64,000 nt of DNA, from NCBI GenBank assembly GCA_948530865.1, contig CAOTKV010000006.1, positions 13,238 through 77,237 of the forward strand, written 5' to 3'. This document shows positions 47,601 to 63,849 of this stretch, piece by piece; position 1 is the stretch's first letter; the number at the start of each line of letters is the position of its first letter. The position numbers and the translations under genes were made by a program. This stretch comes from an uncultured Clostridia bacterium. Its GTDB lineage: Bacteria > Bacillota > Clostridia > TANB77 > CAG-508. The notes below the pieces were generated by a model. The model was not told where the DNA came from. It searched no databases and saw only the letters and a list, made by a program, of their open reading frames with translations.

Positions 47601-50600
47601 TGATGCATTACCTGAACCAAATATACTTCCTTTTATATTAATTGAATTATTTTCTGTTGTATCATAATCTGTTCCATCTAAATTAATTTTAATATTACCA
47701 TTAATACTTTTGAAGTTATAATCAAAAACATCTGAACCAGTTCTTGATTCACCACCACCAAATATTGTACCAGATATTTCTATTTTTCCTTGCTCATAAC
47801 CTTGGTCTATAGCTGATTTTCCTATGAAAAGATTAGCATTTCCAAATATTTTAGCTTGATTTGATCCACCATACACACTACCATTTATTGTAGCACCTGA
47901 TATATATACATACGAATCTGCACCAGCTATTTGATCTGTACTTGTATCACCAATTGCACCAACGTTTGCAGCATCACCACCACCAAATAAATTATTTTTT
48001 ATAATAGTAGTTCCTTCTGCAATTATTTTTGTAGGACCTTTTACTAAAGCTTTATTACAAGCATTTCTCTCATCACCTTTACCAGCTGCAAAAGCGCTTC
48101 CATTAACTGTTGTTGAACTAATTCTAACAGATGTTTCGCCATCTACATTTCCTAGCTCTCCACCACCATATACGTTTTCTACAATAGAATTTAAAAGCTC
48201 TACTGTTGTTTTTTTAGCAACTGTATTTTCACCAAATCCACCACCATATACATTACCTACATTTTCTGTATTTTCACATTTTATCAATGTTTCTCCAACA
48301 GTACCTGCTGAATTAGAACCTCCATATATATTACGAGCTTTTCCTTTTACATACATTGCAATAGTTCTGCTTTCTTCAACACCAGCATTATTTCCACCAC
48401 TATATGCATTTCCAACTTCAGCATTTTCATATAGATACATTTCGTTTTTATATGGTTTATTATCTGTACATTTAACTTGTGCATTGTTTCCACCAGCATA
48501 TACTTCATTTACATATGTTGGTGCTTTCTCTCCAACTTTAACTGTAATATTTCCAGTAATTGTACCATTTATATTAGCACCACCAAATACTTTAAGATTT
48601 TCATATCTTCCACCATCTATTGTTACACTAACTTCTTTGTTAGTTGCTGGTCGTACATTATTTCCTTTTCCTGCTCCATAAATATTTCCAGCAATATTTA
48701 TATTTCTATCTTCTGATTTTTGATTTACAGTAATTGCAGAGATACCATCTACTGCTCCCATTTCACTACCACCATAAATATTTCCAGTTATATTTACATT
48801 ATTTGAATCATTATTTACTATAATTTGTGATGTACCATTAACTGATGTTCCTAAACCACAACCACCAACAAATATTGCGTCTTTGCCTTCATTATTAGCA
48901 TTTACAGTACCACCGCTTAAAGTAATTTTAGCATTTCCTTTAACTGTTCCATTAACATTAGAACCACCATAAACAGTTCCATCAACAGTTCCGTTTTTCA
49001 TGTTTATTTCAACATTTCCATCAACACCATTTTGGTTAGAACCACCATATACATTTCCACCTATAGTTCCACCTAGTATATCTACTTTAGAGTTTTGAGC
49101 AACTTTTCCAAAGTTTCCTCCACCATATACATTTTTTAGTATTTTAGCATTTCCATCTATAATAACATGTGATGAATTTAAATTTCCAGCTGTTGCATTT
49201 CCACTTTTTCCATTTCCAGCACCTAATACATTTCCATATTCTAAATCATATATTTTATCCGCTGTTGGAGAAAATTTTTTATTTACTAACCTATCATCTC
49301 CACCAATAGTAGCATTTCCACCAATATAAAGTAATGTATTGCCATTCAAAGTTCCAGCTCCATCTTTAGAAGCACAACCATTTATACCTCCAGCTATAGC
49401 ATATTGAACTATACCATCTGTCATTTGTAAAATTCTATCACCCGCTGTATTTAATTGAAAAGAACCTGCAGATATATATTGTATATTAGCACCACTTCCC
49501 TTTATATATATATGTGTATTAGCAAGATTAGCATAATTTGAATTCACACATAATCCACTAGTTATATTAACAATTTGTCCACCTTCTACTGTTAATACTC
49601 TATTTCCTTTATCATATGAAGATGTTGTATTGTCTCCATTAGTATAGCCTGCAATTGCAATACCAGCTGTACCAGCCAAATTTTGCTCAGAGCCAGTTTC
49701 GCCATATTGTTCATAAAAATCTATACCAATTTTTCCACTTTTTACACATATATTGTATATTGTATCTGAATTAGATATCGTTGATACAATTCCTTTTTCA
49801 TATCTTGCGGTAAGTCTATAATAAATGTTTAAATTTTCATTATTATTTAATGCTTTATCATAATCTGCTCCAAGAACAAAATTAGCTAAAACATTACGAT
49901 TTTTAGAAGTTGAATCATTTCCATTTTCAACATATACATTTGAATATCTTCCTGATTCTATTACAGTTTTATATTCTTCTTTTTCACCACTACCGCCTTG
50001 AACTTGAGCAAATGTCGTTGTTGTATCAGATACATTTAATGGAGTCATTCCTCTACCAATACGTAAATTATATGAATTTCCTGATATTGTCCAGTGATAT
50101 TTCTGTGTTCCATTATTATTATATTCTTTAAAATTTTCACTATTGTTTTCGTTGTAATTTCCAGAACCTGTAATGTTCAAAAATGCCATTTGTAAATCAT
50201 TTTCAATTTCTACATTATATGTTAGTTTAACTTTTGCATTTTCATTTAATCTATAATCATGTCCATCATATAAACTTGTGACTGTATAACCCACATCTGC
50301 TTTTTTAAAAGCTTTATTATCACTATTATCAGAATTAATTTCTCCACCAGAAACTATAATTATATTTAATTCTCTATCTGATGCATTAGATGCATATTTC
50401 GGATTTTCATTTAATTTATTTATTGCATCATTCCATGAGCCAAGTTCTTGTCCAAGTGTTCTACCATCTCCTGTACCACCTTGTTTCATAAATACTACAT
50501 TAGCAATTTTCCAATCTGCATATAAATCAACTGTAATTTCTTTATTTTCTGGACTTACTGGTATTTCTGCTTTTTGAACTTTAGTATTGTTATTTATAGA

Positions 50601-52787
50601 TATAGTATAGGCATCATTTTTCCATCCATCAAAACCTAATAAAACTTCTTCTCCTGGTTTTAATGAATCTGAATATCTTTTTGTTGCAACAGGTCTATTC
50701 ATAAATGGATTATCAATTAATTCAAATGATATTTTTCCATCTATTATAGGTAAACATGTTTTATATGATACAAGATTTTGTTTTTCATTTTCGTTAGCAG
50801 ATATAGAAGCTGATATTTGTGACATTTCATAATCATAATTTTCTATTGTAACTAAATTAACACTATCTGGCTTTAATGCTAGAACAAGATTAGATGGTGT
50901 GGTTCTAGACCCTTCTACTCTTACAAGAACTTCTATTTTATTATCTATTAATTGATTTCCAGCAGATGAAGATAATTCAAACGTCCTATAATCAATTTTC
51001 TTATATGCAGATGATTCTATAATATCAAAATTACTATTATACCTTGAATCTTTAAATGTTACTTGCATTCTCCAATTTGAACCAACTTCAACATCAGAAT
51101 TAACTTCAATTGTAACTTTACAATCAGCAGTATTTGCAGGCATTCCAGTAAGAGGTTCTCTTACTGATGTAACATTTATCTTTGAATAATCAATAAAATT
51201 TTCTGAATCTTCATTTCCTGTTATTGGATTTTCTGGAATTGAATGATAATTAACTGTAACTTTAGCTAAATTATCTTCAGTATATTTTCCAGTATTATTT
51301 CCATCTTTATTATCTGTATAATTTTTTCCTAAATAAAAGTTTTTATCTGATTCATATGTATCAATTACTATTTGTTCTTCTGTTCTAATATCTTCTGCAA
51401 TAGCAACATATGTGTACTCTACAAACTTATCTGTATCCATTTCGACAGAATCAAATCCAAATTCAACATCTTCATTTTTAAATTCTTCAATTACATCTAA
51501 TACTTCATTTTCTAAAGACATAAGAGCTATATCATTATTCTTAAAACGAACTAATTTTACGTTTAATTCATTTTTTACATTATTTAAGTGTGTTGTTGAT
51601 ATTGCTTTTACATTTATGCTTGGTGCAAATTCTGTTGGTTCGTAAACATTTCCATCTTTTTCAAAAAGAATATTGTATGCAAATACTGGATGAAATTCTT
51701 TAAAATCTTCAGATTGTTTAATTTCCATTTCAATATTTTGAATTTCTTCTTGTGATTTATTTATTGAAATTGCATTTAATGAATAACCAGTTGGAATATA
51801 TCCATTTGCAATAAATTTTGTTTCATTTTCTTCAAAAGTTAATTCTTGTTTATATAATTTTGTATCACCAACTTTTATTGTTTGATATTCAACTTCTATT
51901 GAAACATCTCCAATTGAATATCTATCTTCTCCACTAGTTTCTTTTACTGTAAATTTACTTCCTGGTTTTAATCCTACTTTTTCAACCACAGTATCTGGAT
52001 TATATGCTGGTTTTTCTATTGTTTCATTATCAATCTTATTTTCTTCTACTGTGTTTTCAGCATTTACCTCATTATTAACTTTGTTTTCTTCTACTACTGT
52101 ATTTTCTATAATTTCATTTTCTGGAGCAACAGTAGTATTTGTTGAAATTTCATTTTCTACAATAGTATTTGTAGATACAGTATTTTCTACAACAGTATTA
52201 GTTGATTCCACATTTTCTACTACTGTGTTTGTATTATCTTCACTCTTTTCTTTTTCTTCCTCACTTTCTTCTAAATCATTAGAAGTTAAAAATTTCTTTC
52301 TTAAACCAGCAATTTTTTCTGTTTGCATTACATTTTCTGATTTTATTTCATTAGTATCATTCACTTGGCTTTCTGTATTTTCAGGTAAAATATTTTCTAC
52401 AACATTTTGTATTTCATCAGTAATAGTATTAATAATGACATTGCTATTTTCTTCTTTTACCTTATTCTGAACTCTATTATCAGTTATATAATATTGGTTT
52501 ACATAGTATCCATTTATTTGATCAGGTAAAATAATATATTTTTCACCATTTGTATCTGTAAATACTTCAAGATCTATTTCAGAATTTTCTAAAGAAATAT
52601 CTTCACCATATTCTTTGAAATTAATTTTTATTGCATCTACTAATTCAGATTTAGTTGAAAAATTAAATCTATATATAACAAATAAAAATACAATTAAAAT
52701 TAGAATTATTAGTGTATTTCTAACTAAATTCTTTTTAATAACTTTATCTTTTTTAGTTTTAAAAATTCTTCTATTTCTCCTAGCCAT
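44619..52787 (-). CDS. Giant (2722 aa) N-terminally anchored surface protein with a central parallel-beta-helix-like repeat region
   Basis: Single uninterrupted ORF with the N-terminal TM helix LIILILIVFLFVIYRF. It contains a VEN/STNT tandem linker and more than 15 [VI][YF]GG[SG]N..G.V.G repeats. The C-terminus ...GDVFSYIIIK carries no LPXTG. Confidence 0.85.
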   Translation of the reverse strand: MARRNRRIFKTKKDKVIKKNLVRNTLIILILIVFLFVIYRFNFSTKSELVDAIKINFKEYGEDISLENSEIDLEVFTDTNGEKYIILPDQINGYYVNQYYITDNRVQNKVKEENSNVIINTITDEIQNVVENILPENTESQVNDTNEIKSENVMQTEKIAGLRKKFLTSNDLEESEEEKEKSEDNTNTVVENVESTNTVVENTVSTNTIVENEISTNTTVAPENEIIENTVVEENKVNNEVNAENTVEENKIDNETIEKPAYNPDTVVEKVGLKPGSKFTVKETSGEDRYSIGDVSIEVEYQTIKVGDTKLYKQELTFEENETKFIANGYIPTGYSLNAISINKSQEEIQNIEMEIKQSEDFKEFHPVFAYNILFEKDGNVYEPTEFAPSINVKAISTTHLNNVKNELNVKLVRFKNNDIALMSLENEVLDVIEEFKNEDVEFGFDSVEMDTDKFVEYTYVAIAEDIRTEEQIVIDTYESDKNFYLGKNYTDNKDGNNTGKYTEDNLAKVTVNYHSIPENPITGNEDSENFIDYSKINVTSVREPLTGMPANTADCKVTIEVNSDVEVGSNWRMQVTFKDSRYNSNFDIIESSAYKKIDYRTFELSSSAGNQLIDNKIEVLVRVEGSRTTPSNLVLALKPDSVNLVTIENYDYEMSQISASISANENEKQNLVSYKTCLPIIDGKISFELIDNPFMNRPVATKRYSDSLKPGEEVLLGFDGWKNDAYTISINNNTKVQKAEIPVSPENKEITVDLYADWKIANVVFMKQGGTGDGRTLGQELGSWNDAINKLNENPKYASNASDRELNIIIVSGGEINSDNSDNKAFKKADVGYTVTSLYDGHDYRLNENAKVKLTYNVEIENDLQMAFLNITGSGNYNENNSENFKEYNNNGTQKYHWTISGNSYNLRIGRGMTPLNVSDTTTTFAQVQGGSGEKEEYKTVIESGRYSNVYVENGNDSTSKNRNVLANFVLGADYDKALNNNENLNIYYRLTARYEKGIVSTISNSDTIYNICVKSGKIGIDFYEQYGETGSEQNLAGTAGIAIAGYTNGDNTTSSYDKGNRVLTVEGGQIVNITSGLCVNSNYANLANTHIYIKGSGANIQYISAGSFQLNTAGDRILQMTDGIVQYAIAGGINGCASKDGAGTLNGNTLLYIGGNATIGGDDRLVNKKFSPTADKIYDLEYGNVLGAGNGKSGNATAGNLNSSHVIIDGNAKILKNVYGGGNFGKVAQNSKVDILGGTIGGNVYGGSNQNGVDGNVEINMKNGTVDGTVYGGSNVNGTVKGNAKITLSGGTVNANNEGKDAIFVGGCGLGTSVNGTSQIIVNNDSNNVNITGNIYGGSEMGAVDGISAITVNQKSEDRNINIAGNIYGAGKGNNVRPATNKEVSVTIDGGRYENLKVFGGANINGTITGNITVKVGEKAPTYVNEVYAGGNNAQVKCTDNKPYKNEMYLYENAEVGNAYSGGNNAGVEESRTIAMYVKGKARNIYGGSNSAGTVGETLIKCENTENVGNVYGGGFGENTVAKKTTVELLNSIVENVYGGGELGNVDGETSVRISSTTVNGSAFAAGKGDERNACNKALVKGPTKIIAEGTTIIKNNLFGGGDAANVGAIGDTSTDQIAGADSYVYISGATINGSVYGGSNQAKIFGNANLFIGKSAIDQGYEQGKIEISGTIFGGGESRTGSDVFDYNFKSINGNIKINLDGTDYDTTENNSINIKGSIFGSGNASSAAKDGDITIKNYGSRENKIIKKAISVQRATNVVIDNSVMNLEGTTDSTNTYFKDVAYAFNIIGKLTIKNGTMLYLENGANRLSSFYSMVDKDGSEVPAEVTFSEDGITVTKNVDNRIYLYNGSNLNISAREDVQGEYGHVEGMTFFGVYQGENLYSGIYDENYQIGKAPEWGERNFTTSYVLGLHQRDPEHDITKNGFYTTYEILTPEADKLQKENNLTSDQYNSTGSYYGYIEPTPKDYQYYAWYTGLNRLKRIEITADSLIVTNYSTLGAVDVSLKELDAIKKNGTLTIQDFSVNWEDDNITLVDKSEIENISEDANTKFALAMKTGNAGWASDANTNFKYDDGKGSFTGDEQYTFENADTTTTVGLYLYHSKNVEIEENKKLGTGEILMNLTYMEGPNLYTVEVVIHLSMSMQLDKDTGYNAAITPGVKYDLFTTSATDITTDSSFSTFLELSQRNFRDQIINGSKKDDEYYQKLTRVLNTSYMLPEKTNITMVDLSKNNEPKFYYYTVKTPQNIFYLKDFIAMGSKDGDKKELYNETLMNNSYYDSNLKFHYEAFIFIVDFKDVDFPEGENAKITSDPEMTIELHSEQLNDANIPELNIGLISSQLSAHRTKYNVYRANSQNGVSISPRIQNLYVGNTASITVGTSFSTEQVEGATPTNTQYFNKKLGAVVTLTKDGREVQGSELLGTWIEIDGARYHPRSDGTIRVKLNDIVANVSKRLVINATNSSLASGAYKLSIKTFASADGKYYGTEKHLAEDTIDLNIVNNRYGLNSKLPDNQAVIDCSTGLTLNEQGYASRDEETSNTLDVQLEYNSTLTTPYITVALERREYGEKGEITTEKIYNKNYQTVDLADYVELISEDGQVLTKAPKEITNEGRIEYEAVSTENIKSNSSSLGDAVFNLKYKIKPPADGEKLVTGTYRLVFTLYDISQEEREVVINPDTNTSETLPIIPGTNTTTNTSITKPDITHEIVTVYKPIGDVFSYIIIK
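47581..49260 (-). repeat. Coding array of degenerate ~25-30-aa Gly/Asn-rich repeats (beta-helix-like) inside the giant gene
   Basis: Units include NVYGGGNFGKV, NVYGGSNQNGVDGN, TVYGGSNVNGTVKGN, NIYGGSEMGAVDG, NIYGAGKGN, KVFGGANINGTITGN, EVYAGGNNAQV, NAYSGGNNAGV, NIYGGSNSAGTVG, NVYGGGFGENTV, NVYGGGELGNVDG, NLFGGGDAANVG, SVYGGSNQAKIFGN, TIFGGGESRTGS and SIFGSGNASSAAKDGD. Confidence 0.75.
52038..52235 (-). repeat. Degenerate tandem 8-10-aa repeat (STNTVVEN-type) forming the membrane-proximal stalk of the giant protein
   Basis: aa 185-250 read NTNTVVENVE STNTVVENTV STNTIVENEI STNTTVAPENEIIENTVVEENKVNNEVNAENTVEEN. Confidence 0.7.
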
Positions 52788-52951: not shown

Positions 52952-54058
52952 TTATTTTGGGTTTACTTGTGTTCCAGCTGAATCTAAACTAAAGTTTAAA
53001 GTATATCTAGCACGAGAACCTGATGCATAGTTTTCGCAGTCAATATCTTGACCTTCAATCCACATATAAACTCTATATTTTGTCACACCAGCTGCTAAGG
53101 CTGCTGATTCTCCACTTGGAGTTGTTGCATTCTTTGGCATTACAAGATCTGAAGTTGATGTATCATTTTTACTTGTTGACCAAGTTTTATGTACTGGTGC
53201 AAATTTATCACTATGAGCAGTTGCTGTACCATCTCCTAATAATATTCCTTCTGCAAGTGTTATTGGAGCCTTTACACCATCATATGCTATTTCAGGATTT
53301 CCAGCACCTTCTCTTAAACTATGATTCCAGCCAACTGTTTTTTCATCATATACAATAGCTTTTGATGTATGATAATCATTGTTTGGTTCCCACATCATTG
53401 GTGTTCCACCTGTTTTTAAAGTAGCTCTTAAATCTTCTGCATCTTCAGATTTTTTATTATCACCTGGTATAATTGCAATACGAGAAGCATTTGTTATACC
53501 TTTTTCTTTTGTTGGATCTTCAATTACTTTATCAGGATTATTTAATTCTAATTCAACAACATTTCCTGACATATATAAATCTTTTTCAGCATTTCCTGAT
53601 TTTAAATATATATCAAATGCAATATAATGTCCAGCTGGTGATTCTGTTCCATCATATGCTTTTTCAGTTTCTTCTGTTGAAGTAATTACGAAATTAGTAG
53701 ATGTTTCACTTTCTGGTTCAGTAACACCATAAAACATTTTCATACTATTACCATTTTTTTCAAGTACTGTTGATACTGGTTCCATTACAACTGGTAATTG
53801 GTTAACAATGTTTTCTTTGTATTTTTGTGTTGCATCTTGTAAATCTTTTAATTCAAGTACTGTTTTCCAATCTTCAGCATCAGCTGAAATTTGAAGACCA
53901 CTTTGTGTCTCAATTCTAACATCAAGATTTCCAATGCTTACTGTTCTGTTTGCAGTAAACCATGCATAAGTTGACATTATTAATAGCACTGCTGTTAACA
54001 ATAAAACAAGCAATAAACTATCTAACTTTTTCTTACTTACTTTTGTTTTTTTCTTCAT
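52952..54058 (-). CDS. TasA/camelysin-like exported protein with a SipW-type signal peptide
   Basis: N-terminus MKKKTKVSKKKLDSLLLVLLLTAVLLIMSTYAWFTANRTVS, compared with the TasA-type G-T-[FY]-A-[YW]-F-[ST] box. 368 aa. Confidence 0.7.
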   Translation of the reverse strand: MKKKTKVSKKKLDSLLLVLLLTAVLLIMSTYAWFTANRTVSIGNLDVRIETQSGLQISADAEDWKTVLELKDLQDATQKYKENIVNQLPVVMEPVSTVLEKNGNSMKMFYGVTEPESETSTNFVITSTEETEKAYDGTESPAGHYIAFDIYLKSGNAEKDLYMSGNVVELELNNPDKVIEDPTKEKGITNASRIAIIPGDNKKSEDAEDLRATLKTGGTPMMWEPNNDYHTSKAIVYDEKTVGWNHSLREGAGNPEIAYDGVKAPITLAEGILLGDGTATAHSDKFAPVHKTWSTSKNDTSTSDLVMPKNATTPSGESAALAAGVTKYRVYMWIEGQDIDCENYASGSRARYTLNFSLDSAGTQVNPK

Positions 54059-54073
54059 TTCTTTCCTCCTATA

Positions 54074-54778
54074 TTAATCAACATGTTCTTCTGTAATATC
54101 CATATGCATTTTCAATTCTCCGCCAAGTAACGCATTTGTACAATCAGGATCATCACCTTCAATAAATACAACAATAGTGAATCTATCAATATCACCTGGT
54201 TTGAAGTCTTGTCTACATTCTAACATTACAGTATCATCGGAATAAAAAGCTTTTGTACCTTCTTCTGGTTCTTCTGTAAAGCCATTTAATTTAGCATAAA
54301 CTGATTGTTCTCCATTCAAAAAGACCATAACCCTAATAGCTTCATCTACATTTAAGATAACATCATCAATAAGTGTAGAATACCAATAATTAACTGTTTC
54401 TTTACCTTCATTTTCTATGTAAAAGGTATATGCAATATAATTATCGCCATTATGAGAACCATCGCCTTCTGTATCAATGTTTTCTGGTAACCATTGTATA
54501 GAAATGTTATCCATTCCATCAAATGCAGAAGCTTCGAGTTTTCTTGACACCATCTTTTCAGCCATATTCTCATAAATTACTATTCCTTTATCCCAACTCA
54601 AATTTCGATCTAGAATAATTGTAAATTTTCCAGCATCGTAAATTATAGATAGGATAAAATATAATAAAATCAAGAATAACAATAAAATAAGTAGTGCAAG
54701 TCTAATTATTTTGATTCTCAAATCTCTTCTAACTATTTTTTTAGAGGTCGTCTCAAATTCAAACTTTGTCATTTTCAT
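54074..54778 (-). CDS. Membrane-anchored/exported protein of the SipW-TasA-like cluster
   Basis: 234 aa with the N-terminal TM helix LALLILLLFLILLYFILSIIY, then a beta-rich domain. It lies 15 nt upstream of the TasA-like gene. Confidence 0.5.
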   Translation of the reverse strand: MKMTKFEFETTSKKIVRRDLRIKIIRLALLILLLFLILLYFILSIIYDAGKFTIILDRNLSWDKGIVIYENMAEKMVSRKLEASAFDGMDNISIQWLPENIDTEGDGSHNGDNYIAYTFYIENEGKETVNYWYSTLIDDVILNVDEAIRVMVFLNGEQSVYAKLNGFTEEPEEGTKAFYSDDTVMLECRQDFKPGDIDRFTIVVFIEGDDPDCTNALLGGELKMHMDITEEHVD

Positions 54779-55003
54779 TTGAACAACCTCACCTCCTATT
54801 AGATCAAAGCTATTTTAGATTAGACATACATATTGAATTTTGCATATTCTCTAATTTAGGTTAATTTTACCATATCTAGTAAATCACCTCAATTACATTA
54901 TTTTTACATTTTTTTCTCATGTTTGTTACATTTACCACTTTAATTGACTAAAAAATTTCTCTATGTTACAATTTTCATATACTAATAAGAATGGGGTTTT
55001 TGT

Positions 55004-55768
55004 ATGAAAAAAGAATTAAATACTCACAAATCAAAAAGGATTTTTAAAATTATTTTAGTACTCTTAATTGTTACAATTTTATTTCTAATTATAAGGTCAA
55101 CCTACTCGAAATATGTTACAAATGATGTAAAAGATGCAGACTTTAATATATCAAATTGGCATATATTAATTAATAATTTAGATATAAATAATGAAGAACA
55201 AATTAAAAAATTTTCAGAAACATTAAAACTTAATTATGTAAAAAATGAAAATGTTGCAGAAAATGTTATTGTACCAGGTTCTAGTGGATATTTTGATATA
55301 ACCATTGAATCTACTGGAACAGAAATTCCTTTTAAATATGATGTTTCAATTGATAATACAAAATCAGAATTCCAAGATTTCAAAATTTTATCATATTCTA
55401 TTAGTAATGATATAGATTTAACTTCTCCTGATGCAGATAAAATACTTTATGATTCAAAAGAAGATATTAATCCAGAAGAATCTTCTGTAACTGGTATAAT
55501 AGAACCAGCAAATAATGTTACGGATAAGAATATAAATAATATTAGATTCTATGTAAAATGGTATGATGTTGATAGTAATATTGAAAATTATAATGAAATA
55601 GAAAATAAAGATATTTCTGATAACTATGGAGATGTAAAAGTTTCAAAACAAATAACTGAAGGTAAAGAAAAAGCTGAATTTACAGTTCCTGTAAAATTAG
55701 TAGTTACACAAATAACTCATAATGATTTAAATACAAATACAACAAATACTAATACAATAGAACCTTAA
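55004..55768 (+). CDS. Exported protein with an alternate SipW-type signal (STYSKYV box)
   Basis: N-terminus MKKELNTHKSKRIFKIILVLLIVTILFLIIRSTYSKYVTND. This is the same box as in 63172..63849. It is the only plus-strand gene in the cluster. Confidence 0.65.
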   Translation: MKKELNTHKSKRIFKIILVLLIVTILFLIIRSTYSKYVTNDVKDADFNISNWHILINNLDINNEEQIKKFSETLKLNYVKNENVAENVIVPGSSGYFDITIESTGTEIPFKYDVSIDNTKSEFQDFKILSYSISNDIDLTSPDADKILYDSKEDINPEESSVTGIIEPANNVTDKNINNIRFYVKWYDVDSNIENYNEIENKDISDNYGDVKVSKQITEGKEKAEFTVPVKLVVTQITHNDLNTNTTNTNTIEP

Positions 55769-55824: not shown

Positions 55825-56655
55825 TTATGGATTTTGGGCTTCTTCACCTTTTTGAATTGCCTCTAATTTTACTGTTATTTTTATACAATAATTAGATCCT
55901 TCTTGACCTTTATTTGCTTCATAATATTCATAAGCTTTTATTCCATAATCTGTATCTTTTTTATCATTATCTAATATTTCTGTTTCTGTTTCTCCTGTTT
56001 CATATGACCATACAACATTAAGTTTTATTCTTATGCTTTCTTCTGGAGCAACTGTTACTTCTTTAACTTCTGTAATATCATTATCTTGTAGTGCTATTTT
56101 AATATCAAATGGATATTCTTTTAGTTTATTTAATATCTCTTCTTCTGTAATAACAGTGCCTTCATATTCGTCACTAATCGCAAATTTTTCATCAAATATT
56201 TGCATTGCAACTATCTTGCAAGAAAGTGTTGCATCCATTTCACCACTATTTTTGGCTGTAATTTCTTGAGTGGCATCTGGCATTCCTGGATATACTTCAT
56301 CTAATATTAAATCAAATTCTTCTTGACTATCATCATTCATAAAGTCGATTTTCCAACTCTTAACATGTACATCAACACCCATTGTTACAGTAGATATATA
56401 TATAAACCATGCATATGTATTAACAATTAAAGTTAATAACAATAAGACTACAGTTCTAACTTTTAGACCATTTCTTAATTTTTTACTTGCTATCTTCCTT
56501 TTTCTCTTTTTCTTTTTGTGTTTTACTGTTTTTTCATCTTTATTTAGAGGTTCATTACATATTAATTCATTATTAACTTCATTTTCAACAGCTTCTAAAA
56601 GAATCAATTCTTCTAATTCTTTATCGAGAGTTATCTCTAAATCTTCGTGACTCAT
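55825..56655 (-). CDS. Exported protein with a TasA-like NTYAWF signal box and a long acidic/basic N-terminal extension
   Basis: ...KKRKRKIASKKLRNGLKVRTVVLLLLTLIVNTYAWFIYISTV. ATG 56655 lies behind GGAAGGAG; the track start is 56670. Confidence 0.6.
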   Translation of the reverse strand: MSHEDLEITLDKELEELILLEAVENEVNNELICNEPLNKDEKTVKHKKKKRKRKIASKKLRNGLKVRTVVLLLLTLIVNTYAWFIYISTVTMGVDVHVKSWKIDFMNDDSQEEFDLILDEVYPGMPDATQEITAKNSGEMDATLSCKIVAMQIFDEKFAISDEYEGTVITEEEILNKLKEYPFDIKIALQDNDITEVKEVTVAPEESIRIKLNVVWSYETGETETEILDNDKKDTDYGIKAYEYYEANKGQEGSNYCIKITVKLEAIQKGEEAQNP

Positions 56656-56694
56656 ATATACTCCTTCCATAACAGAATATTGTATTTTTAATAA

Positions 56695-57309
56695 TTATTG
56701 TTTATCCTCATCATCCTCATCATCTTCATCTTCCTCGTCGTCATCCTCATCGTCTTCATTTCTTCCTAATATTGAATCTTTTAATTGTAAAGATATTAGA
56801 ACTGCAAAAGGAACAAATACTACAATATAAAATGCTGTCATATTATTCATTAACTTAGTTAATAAACTAATAATTACACATTTATATACTACTTTACCAT
56901 AAATTTGATCTCCTGTTATAGTAGGATCTTCTGCTTCATTTGCTATACCTTTTGTGTGAAAAATTTTTCCTTCTTCTGTTTCATCTATTGCAACAATTTG
57001 GTGAGTTACAACTCTTCCATTAAATGTTCCTTGTTTTCCTAAGTAAGTTACATCATCACCAATTTTTAAATTATCAATTTGTTCTTCTTTTACTACTAAA
57101 ACATCACCTACTAAATATTTAGGAACCATACTTTCTGTTGCTACATTAAATACTCTAAATCCTCCAATTGCTTTTTCATTATTTGAAAATCTTTGAAGTG
57201 CTAAAACTGATATTAATAAAATTAGAACAATAGTACAAATAATTTTTATTATTGTAACTATAATATTTAATACACTTTTCTTTTCTTTTACTTCTTTTTC
57301 CTTTTTCAT
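56695..57309 (-). CDS. sipW: SipW-type signal peptidase I with a poly-acidic C-terminal tail
   Basis: Ser box TESMVP, His box VTHQIV, TKGIANEAEDP and a C-terminal TM helix. The tail is NEDDEDDDEEDEDDEDDEDKQ. ATG 57309 lies 1 nt after the upstream TAA. Confidence 0.8.
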   Translation of the reverse strand: MKKEKEVKEKKSVLNIIVTIIKIICTIVLILLISVLALQRFSNNEKAIGGFRVFNVATESMVPKYLVGDVLVVKEEQIDNLKIGDDVTYLGKQGTFNGRVVTHQIVAIDETEEGKIFHTKGIANEAEDPTITGDQIYGKVVYKCVIISLLTKLMNNMTAFYIVVFVPFAVLISLQLKDSILGRNEDDEDDDEEDEDDEDDEDKQ

Positions 57310-57310
57310 G

Positions 57311-58441
57311 TTATCTTTCACTTTCAAATTTATTTATTTTTTGAACATATTTAGCGATATGTTTTTTGAATATTTCTTGAATTTCTTTGTTTGAAGTAGT
57401 TCTTCTATATTTAACAATTCGATATTGCTTACTAACTAAATTTTTCAATTGTTCTTCAGTAAGACTTTCATTAACATCAATAGTTCTTTCAACAACATTT
57501 GCTATTAATTGTTCTAGTAGTTCTTTTTTTCTTTTTCCACTAATTTCAGGATTTTCAACACATTCTAAAATTAAGTAATCAAGTAAAAATGTTTCATCTA
57601 CAAATTTCTTTGCTTTTCCTCTATCTTTATACTTTCTTACTTTAGTTTCATTAGTGTTCTCTTCTGATTTTTTATTCATTTCTGTAATCAAAAAATCCCA
57701 TAATTTAACTGCATATTGGAAATTAACGTTTTTTAACAAAACATTAGTCTTTTTTAGTGGTGGAGTTACTAATGGAACATGAGCACGATCTAACTCTTGA
57801 TAAGTTGCAGTTAATGTTAAATTAATAACATTTTTTTCTAATGCTCTTATTCTTTCTAACTGTCTTTTTAATTCATCAGATTTACCACTAGATTCAGTAC
57901 TTGCAGTAAGCATAATTTGTATATCTATTTTGTTTTTTCCATTATAGGATTTTCCTTGATAATCAATTTTCTTGAATTCTTTATCTTTAGATTTATCTTT
58001 TGCCAGCTTATCTTTTTCTTTTTTTATAATTATTAGCATTTTTTGTACTAATGTATAGATAAATCTATTTTCGTATGTATTAAATGTTTCTTCTTTAAAA
58101 ACGTTTAATAACTTTCCTGGTTTTACCTCACCATTTTCATCAACATCATCTATAAAAGAAGAATTTTTTGCTAAATTCTTTATACTTTCAACTGTAACCT
58201 TTTTTATTTTTTCTATTTTTACAACTTCTTCTTCATTTACAATTAACTTTGTTGGATTTCTTAAAATATTATCTAAATATTCTACTGTATCCTCCATTTT
58301 TTGAACCCAAAGAAATTGAGATTTAGGTCTATTAGTTTCAATATTAACATCCATTTTAGAAGTTAAACGTTCATTAAATTTTTTTACATCACTATTATCT
58401 GCATCAGCATATAATTCAAAAACATTTAATAATTTATCCAC
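57311..58441 (-). CDS. Hypothetical partner of the McrB-like AAA+ protein (McrC-position protein; no nuclease motif seen)
   Basis: 376 aa, soluble, 18 nt downstream of the AAA+ gene. It contains TYENRFIYTLV and KKTNVLLKNVNFQYAVKLW segments. I could not find a PD-(D/E)xK motif by eye. Confidence 0.45.
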   Translation of the reverse strand: MDKLLNVFELYADADNSDVKKFNERLTSKMDVNIETNRPKSQFLWVQKMEDTVEYLDNILRNPTKLIVNEEEVVKIEKIKKVTVESIKNLAKNSSFIDDVDENGEVKPGKLLNVFKEETFNTYENRFIYTLVQKMLIIIKKEKDKLAKDKSKDKEFKKIDYQGKSYNGKNKIDIQIMLTASTESSGKSDELKRQLERIRALEKNVINLTLTATYQELDRAHVPLVTPPLKKTNVLLKNVNFQYAVKLWDFLITEMNKKSEENTNETKVRKYKDRGKAKKFVDETFLLDYLILECVENPEISGKRKKELLEQLIANVVERTIDVNESLTEEQLKNLVSKQYRIVKYRRTTSNKEIQEIFKKHIAKYVQKINKFESER

Positions 58442-58459
58442 TGTACCCTCCTAGAATAA

Positions 58460-59995
58460 CTATCCTAATTTCTTTAGTCTTAATACATATTCTATACATT
58501 CTTTCATTTTGCCTTTACCAAAAGTTTTATCTAAGAATGTAACAAATCCATCTATTTCATCTTTTATATAAGCAATATTTAATTGCTCAAATTTTCTTAA
58601 AACTTTTTTTGCCATGAAGTAATCTATACCTTCAACTTCATCTCCACCACATGCAACGTATGCTGCAACGAATTTTCCTAAGTGTGTAACAATACGGTTA
58701 CCAAAAGCAACTCTAAAGTGTTTGATAACATAATCATCCATTTCATTTATTTTCTTCCAAAGATCATCAGAAACTGGGTGTTCTGCTTTTGCTTTTTCAA
58801 ATAAAGAATCTAAATATGTAAAGTTAACATCCATCGGTGGTGTATCTTCTGCTTCAAATGCTTGTCCTTTTTCATTTATATCAATAGGCATTGCTCTATC
58901 GTAAACTTTATCTGTTACCATAAATGTTGAATCATCATTATTGATTGTTCCAATATACCAAGTATTTGCTGGTATTTTAATTCTTCCACCTATAATATGT
59001 TTTGGATCATTTTCCCATGGACTAGAAACAACTTCAATAATCCATTCATCTCTATTTGGCATTTCCAAAATAGAAAGCATTTCAGCAAAATAGTATTCAA
59101 CACGAGCCAAGTTCATTTCGTCTAATATTACAGTATATACATCATCAGTATATGAAGCTATATATAATTGTTCTAATAATTGTGTTTCATTAAACTTTTT
59201 AGTAAATTCATTAAAATATCCAAAAAGTTCTGTTCTATCTCTCCATGAAGGTTGTACTGATACAACACATGAATCATGTTTTAAGAATTTTCCCCAAGCA
59301 TAAGCAAGTGATGTTTTACCAGTACCAGAGATACCTTGTAATATAACTAATTTTGTTGATGCAAGACCAGCTATAAATGTACGAATCATTGGTAATGTAT
59401 AATATAAATGTAATCTTGAAGCAGCAAAATTTCTAAATGTATTACATAATTCTTCTAATTCAAAATCATTATTATAGTTTTGAACTTTATATTTTGCAAA
59501 TTTTTTATCAATAATTGTTAATCTTGTAAATCTTACTCCATCTGCATTTTCAATTTCTTCTTTATTTTCACCATTTGCTTGGCTAATATCCATTTCTGAT
59601 GCTTCGTCTGGGCTTAAACCTAATTGAGAAACTTTCATTGCTAAAATCTCTTCTCTTTCTTTAGTCATTTTAGCAACTCTTTTATTTAAATCTGCAACTT
59701 CTTTTACCATACTTTCTTGTTCTACAAGTGTTTTTCTAAATCTAATATATTTTCTTAATATTAGAAAAACTAAAAGAACAGATAATATTAAAATAATTGC
59801 AACTGCAGCTATAGCAATTGCTACAAGAATCCATTCTTGTCCTGAAAAATCATTCTTATATTCCTTTATTAAGTGAATATAATTTGGAATATCAAAAACT
59901 TGTCTAATTCCATTAATTATTCCAAACACAATTGTTTTTACTCCTGCAAAAAATTCATTTAAAAATTCATATAAGAATCTTACATAAGTGTCCAT
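58460..59995 (-). CDS. Membrane-anchored McrB-like (AAA_5 type) AAA+ NTPase
   Basis: TM helix WILVAIAIAAVAIILILSVLLVFLIL followed by a coiled coil. Walker A: LQGISGTGKTS. Then SVQPSWRDRTELFGYFN. Walker B plus the McrB-like box: VILDEMNLARVEYYFAEMLSILE. Also IGTINNDDST. Confidence 0.75.
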   Translation of the reverse strand: MDTYVRFLYEFLNEFFAGVKTIVFGIINGIRQVFDIPNYIHLIKEYKNDFSGQEWILVAIAIAAVAIILILSVLLVFLILRKYIRFRKTLVEQESMVKEVADLNKRVAKMTKEREEILAMKVSQLGLSPDEASEMDISQANGENKEEIENADGVRFTRLTIIDKKFAKYKVQNYNNDFELEELCNTFRNFAASRLHLYYTLPMIRTFIAGLASTKLVILQGISGTGKTSLAYAWGKFLKHDSCVVSVQPSWRDRTELFGYFNEFTKKFNETQLLEQLYIASYTDDVYTVILDEMNLARVEYYFAEMLSILEMPNRDEWIIEVVSSPWENDPKHIIGGRIKIPANTWYIGTINNDDSTFMVTDKVYDRAMPIDINEKGQAFEAEDTPPMDVNFTYLDSLFEKAKAEHPVSDDLWKKINEMDDYVIKHFRVAFGNRIVTHLGKFVAAYVACGGDEVEGIDYFMAKKVLRKFEQLNIAYIKDEIDGFVTFLDKTFGKGKMKECIEYVLRLKKLG

Positions 59996-60013: not shown

Positions 60014-61012
60014 TTAAACTTCTAATGTTCGTAATTTTTTATATTTCTTTTTATTTATATCATATGTATCTACTATTATGCAATTAAAAATATTTAATAT
60101 CTTTAATTCATCTTCTGTAAGTTTAGGCATATCTTTTTCTGTTCTTAAACAGAAAGTAAAACCACGTTTAGTAAGTTCATAAACACTATCTTTGTTATCA
60201 CAGAAATTATTATAATTAATTTCAAAAGATATTTTATCTTGACTTGCTTGACAGTTTAAAATTGTTAACAATTGTTCAAGTTTTTTCTTTTTAGCAAATA
60301 AATCTGTTGAAAAATCTATAACATAAGTTTTTGTGAAATTCCCATCTAATATATCTTTAAGCGCTTTTATAGCAATCATTGGATATTCAACAAATAATTT
60401 ATCTTCATTAACTATATCTTCATTAAATGTATCTTCAATTGCATCTTTGCTAAACACATCTGGAAATGCAAAATTATATTTAAGTTTGGCTCTATAAAAA
60501 GTATTATCTGATGAAACAATTTTATTTATTTCCAATTCAAACTCATCCGAATTATATCCATTCAAAAGTTCATTTACTTCATTCATATCTGTTTCTACTA
60601 TTTTAGTAAATGTATTTTCAAAGTCATCATCTTCAGCTGATTTCAAATTAAATTTATTAACTCGCTTTTCAGCAATTTTTTTAACAACTTCAGATATTTC
60701 TATATTTTTTCTTACAAAATCGAAATAGAAAAAGTATTGAAATAACATTAATGTATTTTCTACATTTTCCTCATTTGCTTTTTCTTTTTTAACTAGATTA
60801 TTTGCTCTTATTTTTAATGCTTCATATATTCTTCTGTAAAATACTCTTATCTTTTCATCTACTCCAAAATTATAATATCTAGCATCTATATAAGTTTGAA
60901 TTAATTCTTCACAAACATTTCTATCATATTTACTTTTTAAAATTATACTGCAATATCTTTTTAATCTTTTTTGAGTTTTACTTATATGATTTTCTATAAT
61001 ATTATTCATCAT
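60014..61012 (-). CDS. Hypothetical cytoplasmic protein; the C-terminal half is faintly EAL-like but lacks catalytic residues
   Basis: 332 aa. The pattern YVIDFSTDLF...ISFEINYNNF...LTKRGFTFCLRT...LNIFNCIIVD mirrors the EAL strand order (NlS / EitE / G..ialDDFG / KiD), but with the catalytic positions replaced. Confidence 0.3.
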   Translation of the reverse strand: MMNNIIENHISKTQKRLKRYCSIILKSKYDRNVCEELIQTYIDARYYNFGVDEKIRVFYRRIYEALKIRANNLVKKEKANEENVENTLMLFQYFFYFDFVRKNIEISEVVKKIAEKRVNKFNLKSAEDDDFENTFTKIVETDMNEVNELLNGYNSDEFELEINKIVSSDNTFYRAKLKYNFAFPDVFSKDAIEDTFNEDIVNEDKLFVEYPMIAIKALKDILDGNFTKTYVIDFSTDLFAKKKKLEQLLTILNCQASQDKISFEINYNNFCDNKDSVYELTKRGFTFCLRTEKDMPKLTEDELKILNIFNCIIVDTYDINKKKYKKLRTLEV

Positions 61013-62030
61013 TATCTCCCTTTTTCGTTTGTTCTAATACAGTTGTTCCTGAAAGAACTCTTAGCGTATTTTCATCTGGAATTGAATAATCTTTTGTTAC
61101 ATCTTTTTTATAAAATTTTATAAATTCACTATCAGATTGTGCAACTTTAACTTTAATTTTATTTATATATTCATATGAAGGTCTTGGACCAATTTGTATT
61201 GTTTCAACTTCTGTATAATTATTGGCTGTATTATCTAAAACAATAATATTGGGATCAAATTGTATTTCAAGTTCTGCTTCTGCTTTATCAGAATCATTTG
61301 TTAATATAACATTTAAATATGGACTATTTGCACTATCTTCAACTTGATATGTTATTCCATCTTTTCCTGCATAAATATATAAATTTCCATATAAAGTTTC
61401 TGTATACGGTGAAATTGCATCTGCTCTAATTTTTATATGTACATATTCACCTTCTTTAAAATCACTGTTTTTTGGAGTTATATTCATAGTAAATTCATCT
61501 ACATTATCATTAGATATTAATCTTGTTGTTTTTCCACTTAAAATTGGATCTATTTGTAAGTCTATATAAGCACTTCCTAAAGAAAATGTATTTAATTGCT
61601 CTTCTGTCATTTCATTTGGACTTTGCTCTACACAAGATAATGCAGTATCTGTAACATTTTTATATTTGAAAACTTCAACATCAAATTTTAATTCATACTC
61701 TATATCTACTTTTGATTTTTTTAAAGTATTTTTTCTACTATACATTTCAATTGTTGCAATATTAGTTTTTGTTCCTCTACTACCTGACCAATTCTTTATT
61801 TCAAATCTTGTATTTTCATTTTTGGCTAATATGTTACTTGTAAAGTAGAATTCTTTTGAATTCAAATATGCAGTCCTAATAGCTGAATAAACAAACTTCG
61901 ATAAAGAAACTGTTGCTGGAAAAATAACTTTAACACTCATCAATATTATTATGATAGCGATTATAAATAGCATTATTAATCTTTTATAACCACTATTTTT
62001 TCTTCTTGTTTTTCCTCTACCTTCTTTCAA
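61002..62030 (-). CDS. Exported/membrane-anchored beta-rich protein of the SipW cluster
   Basis: N-terminus ...YKRLIMLFIIAIIIILMSVKVIFPATVSLSKFVYS, 342 aa. Overlaps the next gene by 11 nt. Confidence 0.55.
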   Translation of the reverse strand: MKEGRGKTRRKNSGYKRLIMLFIIAIIIILMSVKVIFPATVSLSKFVYSAIRTAYLNSKEFYFTSNILAKNENTRFEIKNWSGSRGTKTNIATIEMYSRKNTLKKSKVDIEYELKFDVEVFKYKNVTDTALSCVEQSPNEMTEEQLNTFSLGSAYIDLQIDPILSGKTTRLISNDNVDEFTMNITPKNSDFKEGEYVHIKIRADAISPYTETLYGNLYIYAGKDGITYQVEDSANSPYLNVILTNDSDKAEAELEIQFDPNIIVLDNTANNYTEVETIQIGPRPSYEYINKIKVKVAQSDSEFIKFYKKDVTKDYSIPDENTLRVLSGTTVLEQTKKGDNDE

Positions 62031-62047
62031 TTAAACCATCCTTTATA

Positions 62048-62653
62048 TTATCTATAAATTTGTCTTGCATCAATTTTTACTTCAATACAATCTATTATAT
62101 TTTGGTATTCAGATTTTTTGTATTCTTCTCCTTCTGGATAAGAAATTTTCAATGTATATGTTCTAGTTTGATCTTTAGTTCTATCTAACTTATGAGCAAC
62201 TTCTTCATATATACATTTGAAATATGTATTATATTCATCTTGTTTTATATTATTACGTATATTATTTTCTTTGCTATCATCAACATAAAGTTCATATTTT
62301 AATGGTAAATTTGTAGTTGTTCTTAATTCTAAGTCGTATTCTATATTAGTATCTGCACGATACTTTTCACCATCTACCATTTTAAAATTAGAAACTGTTA
62401 TTTTATATTCTTTAGGTTCTTTATCATCTGGTCCAATTTCACCTATATTAATTGTTTCAGCATCATAAGTGTCATCAATACAGAAGAATGCGACATCAAC
62501 ATCAGCAGTCGAATTTGCTTCTGATTCGAACAATGAATATGAGTCAAATAGTATTCTGTAAAGTGTAATTAATATAAAAAGGCAGATTAAGCATTTTATT
62601 CTGCGCTTTATTCTTACTATTCTCCTTTTTCTTCGGTATCTTCCTCTAACCAT
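62048..62653 (-). CDS. Exported protein of the SipW cluster (Arg-rich n-region, DSYSLFES box)
   Basis: N-terminus MVRGRYRRKRRIVRIKRRIKCLICLFILITLYRILFDSYSLFESEAN, 201 aa. Confidence 0.55.
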   Translation of the reverse strand: MVRGRYRRKRRIVRIKRRIKCLICLFILITLYRILFDSYSLFESEANSTADVDVAFFCIDDTYDAETINIGEIGPDDKEPKEYKITVSNFKMVDGEKYRADTNIEYDLELRTTTNLPLKYELYVDDSKENNIRNNIKQDEYNTYFKCIYEEVAHKLDRTKDQTRTYTLKISYPEGEEYKKSEYQNIIDCIEVKIDARQIYR

Positions 62654-62675: not shown

Positions 62676-63179
62676 TTATTGTACTTCTTTATTTTTTGGT
62701 TTTATTCCAAAAATAATTCTTATTGTAATTATAGAAAAAATTATTGCAATAAGAACTTGTGGAGTTTTTAATACTTTTATCCAAGTTCCAACATTATTAA
62801 ATATGTATACAACCTTTCCAACAACATCATTCGAAGTTATTGGAGAATCTTTTGATGTATTTGCATCTCCTTTAGTTATTAAATTATCTTCTGTTTTTTC
62901 TATTACTCTATGTGTTATAAAATCTTTTCCACTTTTATATGTAATAATATCATTTACATTTACATCTTTCGTAAGCTTAACTATTACAATATCTTGTGGT
63001 TTTATTGTACTTTCCATACTACCTGTTATAACTCTAAAAATTGTATAACCGCAAAATTCTATATGATCTTTATGAAATACTTTTAATTGTGCATAACAAT
63101 ATGAAACAATTATTAGAATTATTATCAATATAATCATTAAAAAATCAATTTTTTCAAACCATTTTTTCATTTTACTCAC
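62676..63179 (-). CDS. sipW: SipW-type signal peptidase I
   Basis: Ser box TGSMEST, His box ITHRVI, TKGDANTSKD and a C-terminal TM helix. Overlaps the upstream gene by 8 nt. Confidence 0.85.
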   Translation of the reverse strand: MSKMKKWFEKIDFLMIILIIILIIVSYCYAQLKVFHKDHIEFCGYTIFRVITGSMESTIKPQDIVIVKLTKDVNVNDIITYKSGKDFITHRVIEKTEDNLITKGDANTSKDSPITSNDVVGKVVYIFNNVGTWIKVLKTPQVLIAIIFSIITIRIIFGIKPKNKEVQ

Positions 63180-63849
63180 CTGTATACTGAATTGCTTTAA
63201 CAGTAACTGGAATTTCTAAATCATTTTCTCTAAAAGCATTCATTCCAAGTATTGTATCCATTTCATTAATTTTATCATATGGACTATCACTATTTCCAAA
63301 TGGCCAATTAATTTTTACTGTAACATTATCTATACATTTTGCTTCATCTTTAATTTCTGATAATGGCTTTATTCTATTAATAGTAACTATATCATTTTCT
63401 TCATCTAGTTTATATTCTAGTGTTTTTCCATCTGCCAAATATACATCTTCTAATTTTAAGTTAGTTTCTTTTAAGCTTTTTAAATCTAATTTTATTTCAT
63501 ATTTAAAAGATGTATCAGTTTGTGCTGGATCTATTTTTATATAAAATTCACCATTCATTCCTGGTGCTGCTTTATTTTTTTCAAGATTACTACCATATAT
63601 ATTTTTGTCATCTTTCCAAATAAAATCATTTTTAGTTATTTGGAATTGTACACTTCTTACTTGTTCTTCGCCTTCGATTTCTGGTAGTACTGTTATATCT
63701 GTTTCATTAACTTTTATAATCCATTGTCCTATTGTTGCTTGAACATCTCCTTCTGCCTCGCCAACATATTTTGAATATGTTGATTTCAATATAAAAATTA
63801 ATAAAATTAGTATTAATATAATTATTAGAAATTTAACTTTTTTCTTCAC
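63172..63849 (-). CDS. Exported protein with an alternate SipW-type signal (STYSKYV box)
   Basis: N-terminus MKKKVKFLIIILILILLIFILKSTYSKYVGEAEG. GTG start behind an AGGTGAG SD. Confidence 0.65.
   Translation of the reverse strand: MKKKVKFLIIILILILLIFILKSTYSKYVGEAEGDVQATIGQWIIKVNETDITVLPEIEGEEQVRSVQFQITKNDFIWKDDKNIYGSNLEKNKAAPGMNGEFYIKIDPAQTDTSFKYEIKLDLKSLKETNLKLEDVYLADGKTLEYKLDEENDIVTINRIKPLSEIKDEAKCIDNVTVKINWPFGNSDSPYDKINEMDTILGMNAFRENDLEIPVTVKAIQYTGE

Follow-up and report, generated by a model that had tools for sequence, protein, structure and literature searches.

What does a McrB-like nucleoside triphosphatase (NTPase) do when it is anchored in the membrane and paired with a McrC-like protein that has no nuclease? 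This question is raised by two adjacent genes in a 64,000-nucleotide (nt) stretch of contig CAOTKV010000006.1 from an uncultured Clostridia bacterium; the whole stretch is called the window below. McrBC is the textbook modification-dependent restriction enzyme, and a first-pass annotation of the window had offered two readings of the pair: a non-restriction use of the McrBC chassis, or a membrane-associated defence system with an unrecognised effector. Our analysis supported the former. We concluded that the pair is very probably a component of the CoCoPALM type, a class named by Bell et al. (2024), within a non-defence operon. The fuller reading, that it is a nuclease-less, membrane-anchored motor of the McrBC type in an operon for SipW-processed, probably TasA-like, surface proteins, was considered probable. 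Neither the surrounding operon nor the existing class name had been part of the first-pass annotation; its coordinates for the two genes, both on the minus strand, were correct.

58460-59995, minus strand: McrB-like NTPase, 511 amino acids (aa), called from its open reading frame (ORF), ribosome-binding site (RBS) and McrB profile matches
57311-58441, minus strand: McrC-like partner, 376 aa, called from its Pfam DUF2357 match and from adjoining the NTPase gene

The relationship of the 511-aa protein to McrB was examined through its motifs and by profile comparison. The segments concerned were the following.

58862-59410, minus strand: AAA+ core of the NTPase, residues 196-378, delimited by invariant residues and alignment to McrB
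59309-59335, minus strand: Walker A, GISGTGKTS, residues 221-229, read from the sequence
within 59063-59125, minus strand: Walker B, LDEMN, read from the sequence
within 58925-58951, minus strand: signature N352-x-D354, in GTINNDDST (residues 349-357), aligned with the NTAD box of McrB

All of the McrB-type motifs quoted in the first-pass annotation were present, including PSWRDRTELFGYF at residues 249-261 and LDEMNLARVEYYFAEMLSILE at residues 291-311. In the family alignment (A2), residues G221, G224, G226, K227, T228, D292, N295, R298, E300, N352 and D354 were invariant. Residue 355, next to the last of these, was D, E or Q; the signature is NxD, not the NxxD of McrB. An NxD box, "usually followed by E or a second D", defines a major branch of McrB proteins (Bell et al., 2024; PMC11090510). 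The NTPase aligned with residues 176-356 of E. coli McrB in hhalign (probability 96.7%, E = 3.4e-10), its profile matched McrB chains in the PDB (E = 7e-6), and the NCBIfam McrB model was matched at E = 1.4e-7. Pfam AAA_5 was found in 25 of the 28 family members, and the PADLOC model PDC-M26A was matched at E = 2.4e-37 through the AAA core only (profile positions 313-437 of 724). These results indicated that the 511-aa protein is a McrB-type NTPase, with a relationship to McrB far beyond chance.

From its N- to its C-terminus, the NTPase consisted of an amphipathic helix, a transmembrane (TM) helix, a coiled-coil-like helix, an acidic linker, the AAA+ core and a C-terminal helical region. Residues 1-150 had no match to a DNA-binding family; they held the first four of these elements instead.

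59756-59833, minus strand: TM helix of the NTPase, residues 55-80, found by Kyte-Doolittle hydropathy and conserved family-wide
59621-59746, minus strand: conserved helical, coiled-coil-like segment of the NTPase, residues 84-125 (about 40 aa), found by family alignment and heptad count

Residues 55-80 were the sole segment above the hydrophobicity threshold (Kyte-Doolittle mean 3.44). A basic stretch, RKYIRFRK (59732-59755), followed directly on the C-terminal side, and by the positive-inside rule this would place the AAA+ domain in the cytoplasm. The helix after it had the family consensus VEQExLLxEVAxLNxxVxxLxKExExILAMKVS (alignment A2) and was hydrophobic at 7 of 12 a/d heptad positions. 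A coiled coil of about 60 aa had been proposed here; the heptad-like helix was indeed conserved, but it covered about 40 aa and gave way to a variable acidic linker, to the invariant residues R155-F156...L159...D163 and then to the AAA+ core. The start codon, ATG at 59995, had a GGAGG RBS 7 nt upstream, and the N-terminus was conserved across homologues, M1 included. A mis-called start was therefore rejected as the source of the TM region, a check that the first-pass annotation had named. Thus, the DNA-reading N-domain of McrB appears to have been replaced by a membrane anchor and a coiled-coil-like helix, as had been suggested. On the N-terminal side of the TM helix, residues 9-34 (59894-59971, minus strand) formed a conserved amphipathic helix with a G-x6-G-x3-G pattern and a hand-estimated mean hydropathy of about 1.2; it may be embedded in the membrane as a second helix, or act as a glycine zipper.

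The downstream gene is separated from the NTPase ORF by 18 nt. It starts with GTG at 58441, with an AGGAGG RBS 5 nt upstream, and its N-terminus is conserved in homologues.

57974-58297, minus strand: DUF2357 match in the partner, residues 49-156 (Pfam)

This match to DUF2357 (PF09823) had an E-value of 4.6e-13 and scored 49.4 bits against a cut-off of 23.3, and nearly all homologues of the partner are annotated as DUF2357. The family shared the motifs NTYENRF (residues 121-127) and PPLKKxNVxLKNVNFQYAxKLW (227-248). Profile alignment to a plasmid-encoded DUF2357 protein gave a shared region at partner residues 47-256 (E = 0.0016), in which the two aligned at YENR and at TN(V/I)L..N..(F/Y)....LW. 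DUF2357 has been described as the N-terminal, McrB-activating domain of McrC (Bell et al., 2024; PMC11090510). The first-pass annotation had put the protein in the McrC position only; it does adjoin the NTPase, and the profile evidence indicated that it is also a homologue of the McrC N-terminal domain. An hhalign comparison of the partner profile with E. coli McrC showed no similarity; the test is a weak one, since E. coli McrC falls in Pfam McrBC and not in DUF2357, and it does not speak against McrC ancestry.

We then asked what the partner carries beyond DUF2357. No nuclease family was matched in Pfam at E ≤ 0.1. Homologues of the partner had neither an invariant D...(D/E)xK nor an invariant triad of acidic and Lys residues, and the D...(D/E)xK strings that are present fell on non-invariant residues and were attributed to chance. 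The AlphaFold2 (AF2) model had a predicted local distance difference test score (pLDDT) of 65.8, with low confidence after residue 300. C-terminal of the DUF2357 motifs it showed helices and one strand, its C-terminal third was helical, and no suitable beta-sheet was seen; neither a Foldseek search with the model nor a search of PDB sequences with the profile gave a meaningful match. Longer partners from distant loci, of 623 aa (locus L083) and 451 aa (L091), also matched only DUF2357. Thus, the sequence evidence indicated that the partner keeps the McrB-engaging N-terminal part of McrC and has lost the nuclease, in agreement with the lack of a PD-(D/E)xK motif reported at first pass. The best-conserved stretch, residues 63-118 (INEEEVVKIE...KEE), was unstructured in the model. 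Long helices were modelled at 123-148 and 189-219, and a heptad count gave 7 of 11 hydrophobic a/d positions in residues 186-222, a candidate coiled coil.

To see how far this arrangement is conserved, one genome per species was taken, which gave 80 loci, and all proteins of the window were mapped onto them. All 80 loci came from metagenome-assembled genomes of gut-type Bacillota (Candidatus Scatovivens, Clostridium sp. CAG:567 and CAG:609, and bins labelled "Bacilli" and "Mollicutes"). The same cluster, in the same gene order, surrounded the pair in the 80 species. In 79 of the 80 loci the NTPase and partner genes were direct neighbours on one strand, separated by a median of 17 nt. Below, neighbouring genes are named by their lower coordinate. 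The NTPase was the best-conserved protein of the cluster, with a median identity of 65% (range 61-86%), followed by the 54074 protein (58%), two SipW genes (47-48%), the partner (40%) and the secreted proteins (26-36%). Its homologues form at least 8,000 clusters at 90% identity, and the family occurs in many uncultured gut Bacillota of humans and animals. The window itself is chromosomal; PheT, a Mur ligase, Era and YqfD are also encoded in it.

The operon is about 20 kb long and is devoted to secreted surface proteins, which probably form fibres. Besides the pair it encodes two signal peptidases of the SipW type, six or more proteins with a membrane anchor or SipW signal, one conserved protein of the cytoplasm and a surface protein of 2,722 aa. 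Along the direction of transcription the order is 63172, 62676 (SipW 1), 62048, 61002, 60014, NTPase, partner, 56695 (SipW 2), 55825, 55004 (inverted), 54074, 52952 and 44619 (the 2,722-aa protein). The two peptidases, of the SipW (archaeal/ER) type, both exceeded the curated cut-off of TIGR02228, the model for archaeal and SipW-type signal peptidases.

62676-63179, minus strand: SipW-type signal peptidase 1, 73.9 bits to TIGR02228 against a cut-off of 51.85; 60 of 79 loci
56695-57327, minus strand: SipW-type signal peptidase 2, with a C-terminal TM and a poly-acidic tail, 68.6 bits to TIGR02228 against the same cut-off of 51.85; 76 of 79 loci

The SipW 2 gene overlaps the end of the partner gene, stop codon included, by 17 nt. 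After its C-terminal TM, SipW 2 carries the poly-acidic tail NEDDEDDDEEDEDDEDDEDKQ (codons near 56695-56760). Among SipW 2 orthologues the last 30 residues held a median of 9 D/E, some tails being acidic at 30 of 30 positions, and 41% of the orthologues had at least 10; SipW 1 tails were short and basic, with no acidic tail.

These features were compared with published systems. CoCoPALM was named in three sentences, its analysis being deferred to a "forthcoming publication" (Bell et al., 2024, eLife 13:RP94800; PMC11090510). It was described there as an NxD GTPase fused to an FtsB-like domain of TM helix and coiled coil, with coiled coils usually in both the McrB and the McrC homologue, and as associated with genes of the signal peptidase family (PMC11090510). 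The window pair likewise has an NxD McrB-like NTPase with an N-terminal TM helix and coiled coil, a DUF2357 partner and signal-peptidase-family neighbours; two SipW genes lie above the TIGR02228 cut-off, and the association with signal peptidases is kept across the 80 loci and, further away, in L083, L089, L090 and L091. Nothing in the pair contradicts membership. The supplementary files of the CoCoNuT paper held no details on CoCoPALM, and our search of the literature available to us returned no follow-up on the class and nothing on McrB with TasA or SipW or on McrB-like proteins in pilus assembly. That McrBC may serve outside restriction has been put forward in print before. New beyond the published description of the class are the inventory of the whole operon, the ranking of its genes by conservation, the nuclease-less partner, the TasA-like hint and the neighbours related to cyclic diguanylate (c-di-GMP), described below.

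The pair shares with E. coli McrBC an AAA+ core in which the Walker A and B motifs and the signature box are in register, a two-gene arrangement of NTPase then activator, and a partner of the DUF2357 type, a family equated with the N-terminal domain of McrC by Bell et al. (2024; PMC11090510). It differs in having a TM helix and coiled coil in place of the DNA-binding N-domain, NxD in place of NxxD, a partner without a PD-(D/E)xK domain or direct similarity to E. coli McrC, and a context of secretion, not of restriction-modification. With the CoCoNuT proteins CnuB and CnuC it has in common the NxD clade, coiled coils and McrC homologues that often lack an active nuclease, and its AAA core is about 35-40% identical to plasmid-borne examples. 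In CoCoNuTs, however, the coiled coils are long and cytoplasmic, and a HEPN or other nuclease is invariably linked to the system (PMC11090510), whereas the window pair has a membrane anchor, SipW neighbours and no nuclease partner. The third comparison was with the Bacillus tapA-sipW-tasA operon and the archaeal bundling pili (AbpA). There, as in the window, a dedicated SipW-type peptidase is encoded beside proteins with SipW-type signals, and the 52952 model had its best, though weak, fold match in the TasA fibre, which does not establish homology to TasA. The window cluster differs in its two SipW genes, its many paralogous substrates, its giant protein and its McrBC-like motor.

The remaining genes of the cluster are listed here in the order of transcription.

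63172-63849, minus strand: 225-aa signal-bearing protein (KSTYSKYV) with TM, the first cluster gene in the window; 44 of 79 loci
62048-62653, minus strand: 201-aa protein with an N-terminal TM or signal; 58 of 79 loci
61002-62030, minus strand: 342-aa protein with one N-terminal TM at residues 12-46; 73 of 79 loci
60014-61012, minus strand: conserved cytoplasmic protein of 332 aa, no TM; 77 of 79 loci
55825-56670, minus strand: 281-aa protein with TM and NTYAWF motif, from sequence and TM prediction; 74 of 79 loci
55004-55768, plus strand: 254-aa signal-bearing protein (RSTYSKYV), paralogue of 63172-63849; 70 loci
54074-54778, minus strand: 234-aa single-TM protein, the second most conserved of the cluster, median identity as given above
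52952-54058, minus strand: 368-aa SipW-signal protein (STYAWFTAN) with a beta-rich ectodomain, from TIGR04088 family matches and the AF2 model
44619-52787, minus strand: 2,722-aa protein with an N-terminal TM anchor and glycine-rich repeats, called from its ORF; relatives within 10 kb in 56 of 79 loci

The peptidases aside, all cluster proteins except 60014, the partner and 42740 (a gene beyond the giant one) had a single N-terminal hydrophobic segment, and in several of them this segment was followed by an (S/N)TYAWF or STYSKY motif. The 55825 protein is a putative further SipW substrate. Of 15 members of the 52952 family, 7 matched the SipW-type signal model TIGR04088 (best E = 2.6e-4); the copy in the window, at 14.1 bits, stayed under the cut-off of 19. 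The 52952 AF2 model was confident (pLDDT 91.7), and its protein is a candidate fibre subunit; its likeness to TasA is a hint that falls short of proof. A C-terminal (W/F)IEGxDxDC motif is common to the 54074 and 52952 families (hhalign 89.5%, E = 1.9e-6), and the 63172 and 55004 families align together as paralogues; a comparison of the latter with NCBIfam gave nothing informative. No nuclease, HEPN domain, methyltransferase or integrase family was found among the cluster proteins.

The 60014 gene lies directly upstream of the NTPase gene, with an 18-nt gap, and a similar gene precedes the NTPase in the distant locus L093 too. Its product had no recognisable family, with no convincing Pfam or PDB match. 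A pattern at its C-terminus suggested a degenerate EAL sensor of c-di-GMP; this candidate was rejected, since hhalign against an EAL protein of L083 was null and Pfam and PDB gave nothing consistent. A HEPN motif, Rx4-6H, needs a His, and the 60014 family had no conserved His. The 61002 protein matched no family in Pfam, PADLOC or NCBIfam. The 55004 gene is the only one of the cluster on the plus strand; its inversion was kept in most of the approximately 70 loci that have the gene, and in a few it was on the other strand. A good promoter-like site, TTGACT-17-TACAAT with an upstream TG, lies ahead of it at 54944-54972. A scan of the AT-rich cluster for promoters and terminators was uninformative: promoter-like sites were fewer than in shuffled sequence, and no convincing internal terminator was found.

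The 2,722-aa protein had no Pfam match. Eleven [YF]GG[SGA] motifs at residues 1221-1676, often spaced by about 26 residues, suggest a beta-helix-like repeat. Beyond its gene lie a 535-aa cytoplasmic protein (42740-44347, minus strand), which travels with the giant gene in 28 loci, and a DUF4116 repeat protein (41567-42097, minus strand; E = 9e-61). Elsewhere in the window, four large ORFs of 391-919 aa, at 13237-15381, 18746-21505, 25714-27795 and 28758-29933 (all on the minus strand), were without a Pfam match at E ≤ 1e-5.

More distant relatives were then sought. An exhaustive search of representatives with the NTPase reached 8,427 clusters at 50% identity at E ≤ 0.001 and 764 at E ≤ 1e-30, and about two dozen of the top 150 matches aligned over the full length, N-terminus included. 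Contigs were examined for nine full-length distant representatives (33-49% identity in alignment A2). The order SipW-NTPase-partner was kept in L083, L089, L090 and L091, whose NTPases are 44-50% identical to that of the window, and the second SipW gene was present wherever the contig reaches. Genes like 52952 or 54074 lay alongside in L083, L090 and L091; all three loci carry 52952-like proteins, and the match of the 54074 model in L083 was 7.5e-61. In L083, one GGDEF and two EAL proteins (L083:485-3098 and L083:11446-14295) flank the SipW-NTPase-partner-SipW core. Such genes are described as typical of surface-structure regulation, and this placement hints at c-di-GMP control of the system. 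At L086:6475-13585 and L087:6988-11503 we observed a tandem duplication of the module, consisting of NTPase, partner, second NTPase and a further large protein. In L093 (721-4341), phage-like genes (DUF859, holin) were directly upstream of the trio of 60014-like gene, NTPase and partner. No full-length relative of the NTPase was found in 72,556 plasmids or 50,697 phage records; the relatives there matched over the AAA+ core only, at up to 40% identity. The best plasmid match was CoCoNuT-like, an 800-aa ATPase with a 705-aa DUF2357 protein on Deinococcus p96k.

How might such a motor work? We propose, tentatively and as the likeliest option, an assembly mechanism in which nucleoside triphosphate hydrolysis in the cytoplasm is coupled to the handling of surface-fibre precursors. 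By analogy with McrBC, six NTPase subunits would form a ring held under the membrane, and partner residues 63-118 would insert into this ring and trigger nucleotide hydrolysis through the NxD box. In the established McrBC structures cited in PMC11090510, the N-terminal extension of McrC inserts into McrB hexamers. A segment that folds only inside its partner ring might be expected to look unstructured alone, as residues 63-118 did in the model. From the gene context, the energy would be spent on processing, extracting or polymerising membrane-anchored precursors, or on their peptidase. A bolder version, which we rate as rather unlikely, would make the McrB/McrC-derived ring the cytoplasmic engine of an undescribed nucleotide-driven pathway that processes and polymerises SipW-dependent (TasA-like) fibres, and perhaps giant adhesins, in gut Bacillota; such a ring may grip the polyanionic SipW tail as a DNA mimic. 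That the acidic tail of SipW 2 is a cytoplasmic handle for the ring is speculation.

Several points weigh against our main reading as a whole, the assembly mechanism included. FtsB homology of the NTPase N-terminus was not reproduced at significant E-values among the 28 members examined, which gave only marginal matches to DivIC (2 of 28, best E = 0.012), FtsL (2 of 28) and FtsL_2 (3 of 28). The TM-bearing relatives L086, L087 and L088 had no SipW gene within 10 kb. The top Foldseek match of 52952 among 350,542 PDB chains, TasA fibre 8aur_A, was weak (E = 0.03, probability 0.28, TM-score 0.2-0.3), and profiles of 52952, 54074 and 63172/55004 searched against PDB sequences matched neither TasA nor camelysin nor anything else. 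The missing nuclease fold of the partner is not proven structurally, given a mediocre AF2 model. The one SipW/TasA system that is well studied, tapA-sipW-tasA of Bacillus, has no ATPase gene in its operon, and its subunits are exported by Sec, so that the need for a motor in the cytoplasm is not evident. Nor did a text search turn up any mention of an ATPase in the paper on archaeal bundling pili. Finally, no experiment is on record for any member of CoCoPALM.

The same operon could give the pair another job. As a membrane-proximal regulator or quality-control unfoldase, it might control SipW by gating or activation, or extract stalled precursors, signal peptides after cleavage or the charged cytoplasmic tail of SipW 2 from the membrane, with the partner as the switch for hydrolysis. 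The tightest conserved core, SipW-NTPase-partner-SipW, is in keeping with this, as are the 17-nt overlap of partner stop and SipW 2 start and the long extension, acidic or charged, that often follows the last TM in SipW 2 orthologues but not in SipW 1; AAA+ rings commonly thread charged tails. We nevertheless consider this reading unlikely: acting on proteins would be unprecedented for a McrB-type ring, the acidic tail is highly variable, reaching 10 D/E in fewer than half of the orthologues, and a contact between tail and ring would be speculative. It is more improbable still that the pair serves the giant surface protein, by exporting, anchoring or remodelling an adhesin of more than 2,600 aa, and not the small SipW substrates. 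A TM-anchored protein of this size does belong to the cluster, with relatives within 10 kb in most loci, and in L086 and L088 the TM-NTPase and partner adjoin membrane- or lipid-anchored proteins of 3,176 aa and 2,750 aa with no SipW nearby. In L083, L089, L090 and L091, however, the SipW core stands without a giant gene in the available sequence, although these contigs are short; the leucine-rich-repeat giant of L088 and that of the window share no detected family, and only three distant loci point this way.

The first-pass annotation had also raised a membrane-associated defence system with an unrecognised effector. In this reading, which found no support and is in our estimate the least probable, the pair would descend from McrBC or CoCoNuT and act against phages or plasmids. 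McrBC ancestry speaks for it, together with the match of the AAA+ core to the PADLOC candidate PDC-M26A and the CoCoNuT-like pairs, such as that of Deinococcus p96k, that are the nearest AAA-only plasmid relatives. However, PDC-M26A matched over the AAA core only, and no PADLOC model was matched by the partner or the upstream genes, leaving the PDC-M26 pair incomplete. None of the nuclease, HEPN, methyltransferase or integrase genes looked for was found in the cluster; housekeeping genes share the window; and full-length relatives are absent from the plasmid and phage records searched. The fixed place in a secretion-type operon across 80 species, with the NTPase as its most conserved protein, is also unlike fast-turnover defence islands. 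We prefer a membrane-anchored McrBC-type motor of an operon for SipW-processed surface proteins.

A McrBC derivative that has no nuclease, is anchored in the membrane and belongs to a conserved surface-structure operon would demonstrate a new use of the motor beyond conflicts over nucleic acids. Such McrB-like matches should not be counted as defence genes in automated surveys. The anatomy of the operon, its conservation pattern and the candidate contacts go beyond the published account of the class. With them the question can be put to a direct test, at three candidate interaction surfaces: partner residues 63-118, the NxD box of the NTPase and the acidic tail of SipW 2. If the bolder version of the assembly mechanism is true, no energy-coupled assembly machine would have been described before for fibres of this class, and the ring would be the first motor of the McrBC type with proteins or membranes, not nucleic acids, as its demonstrated target.

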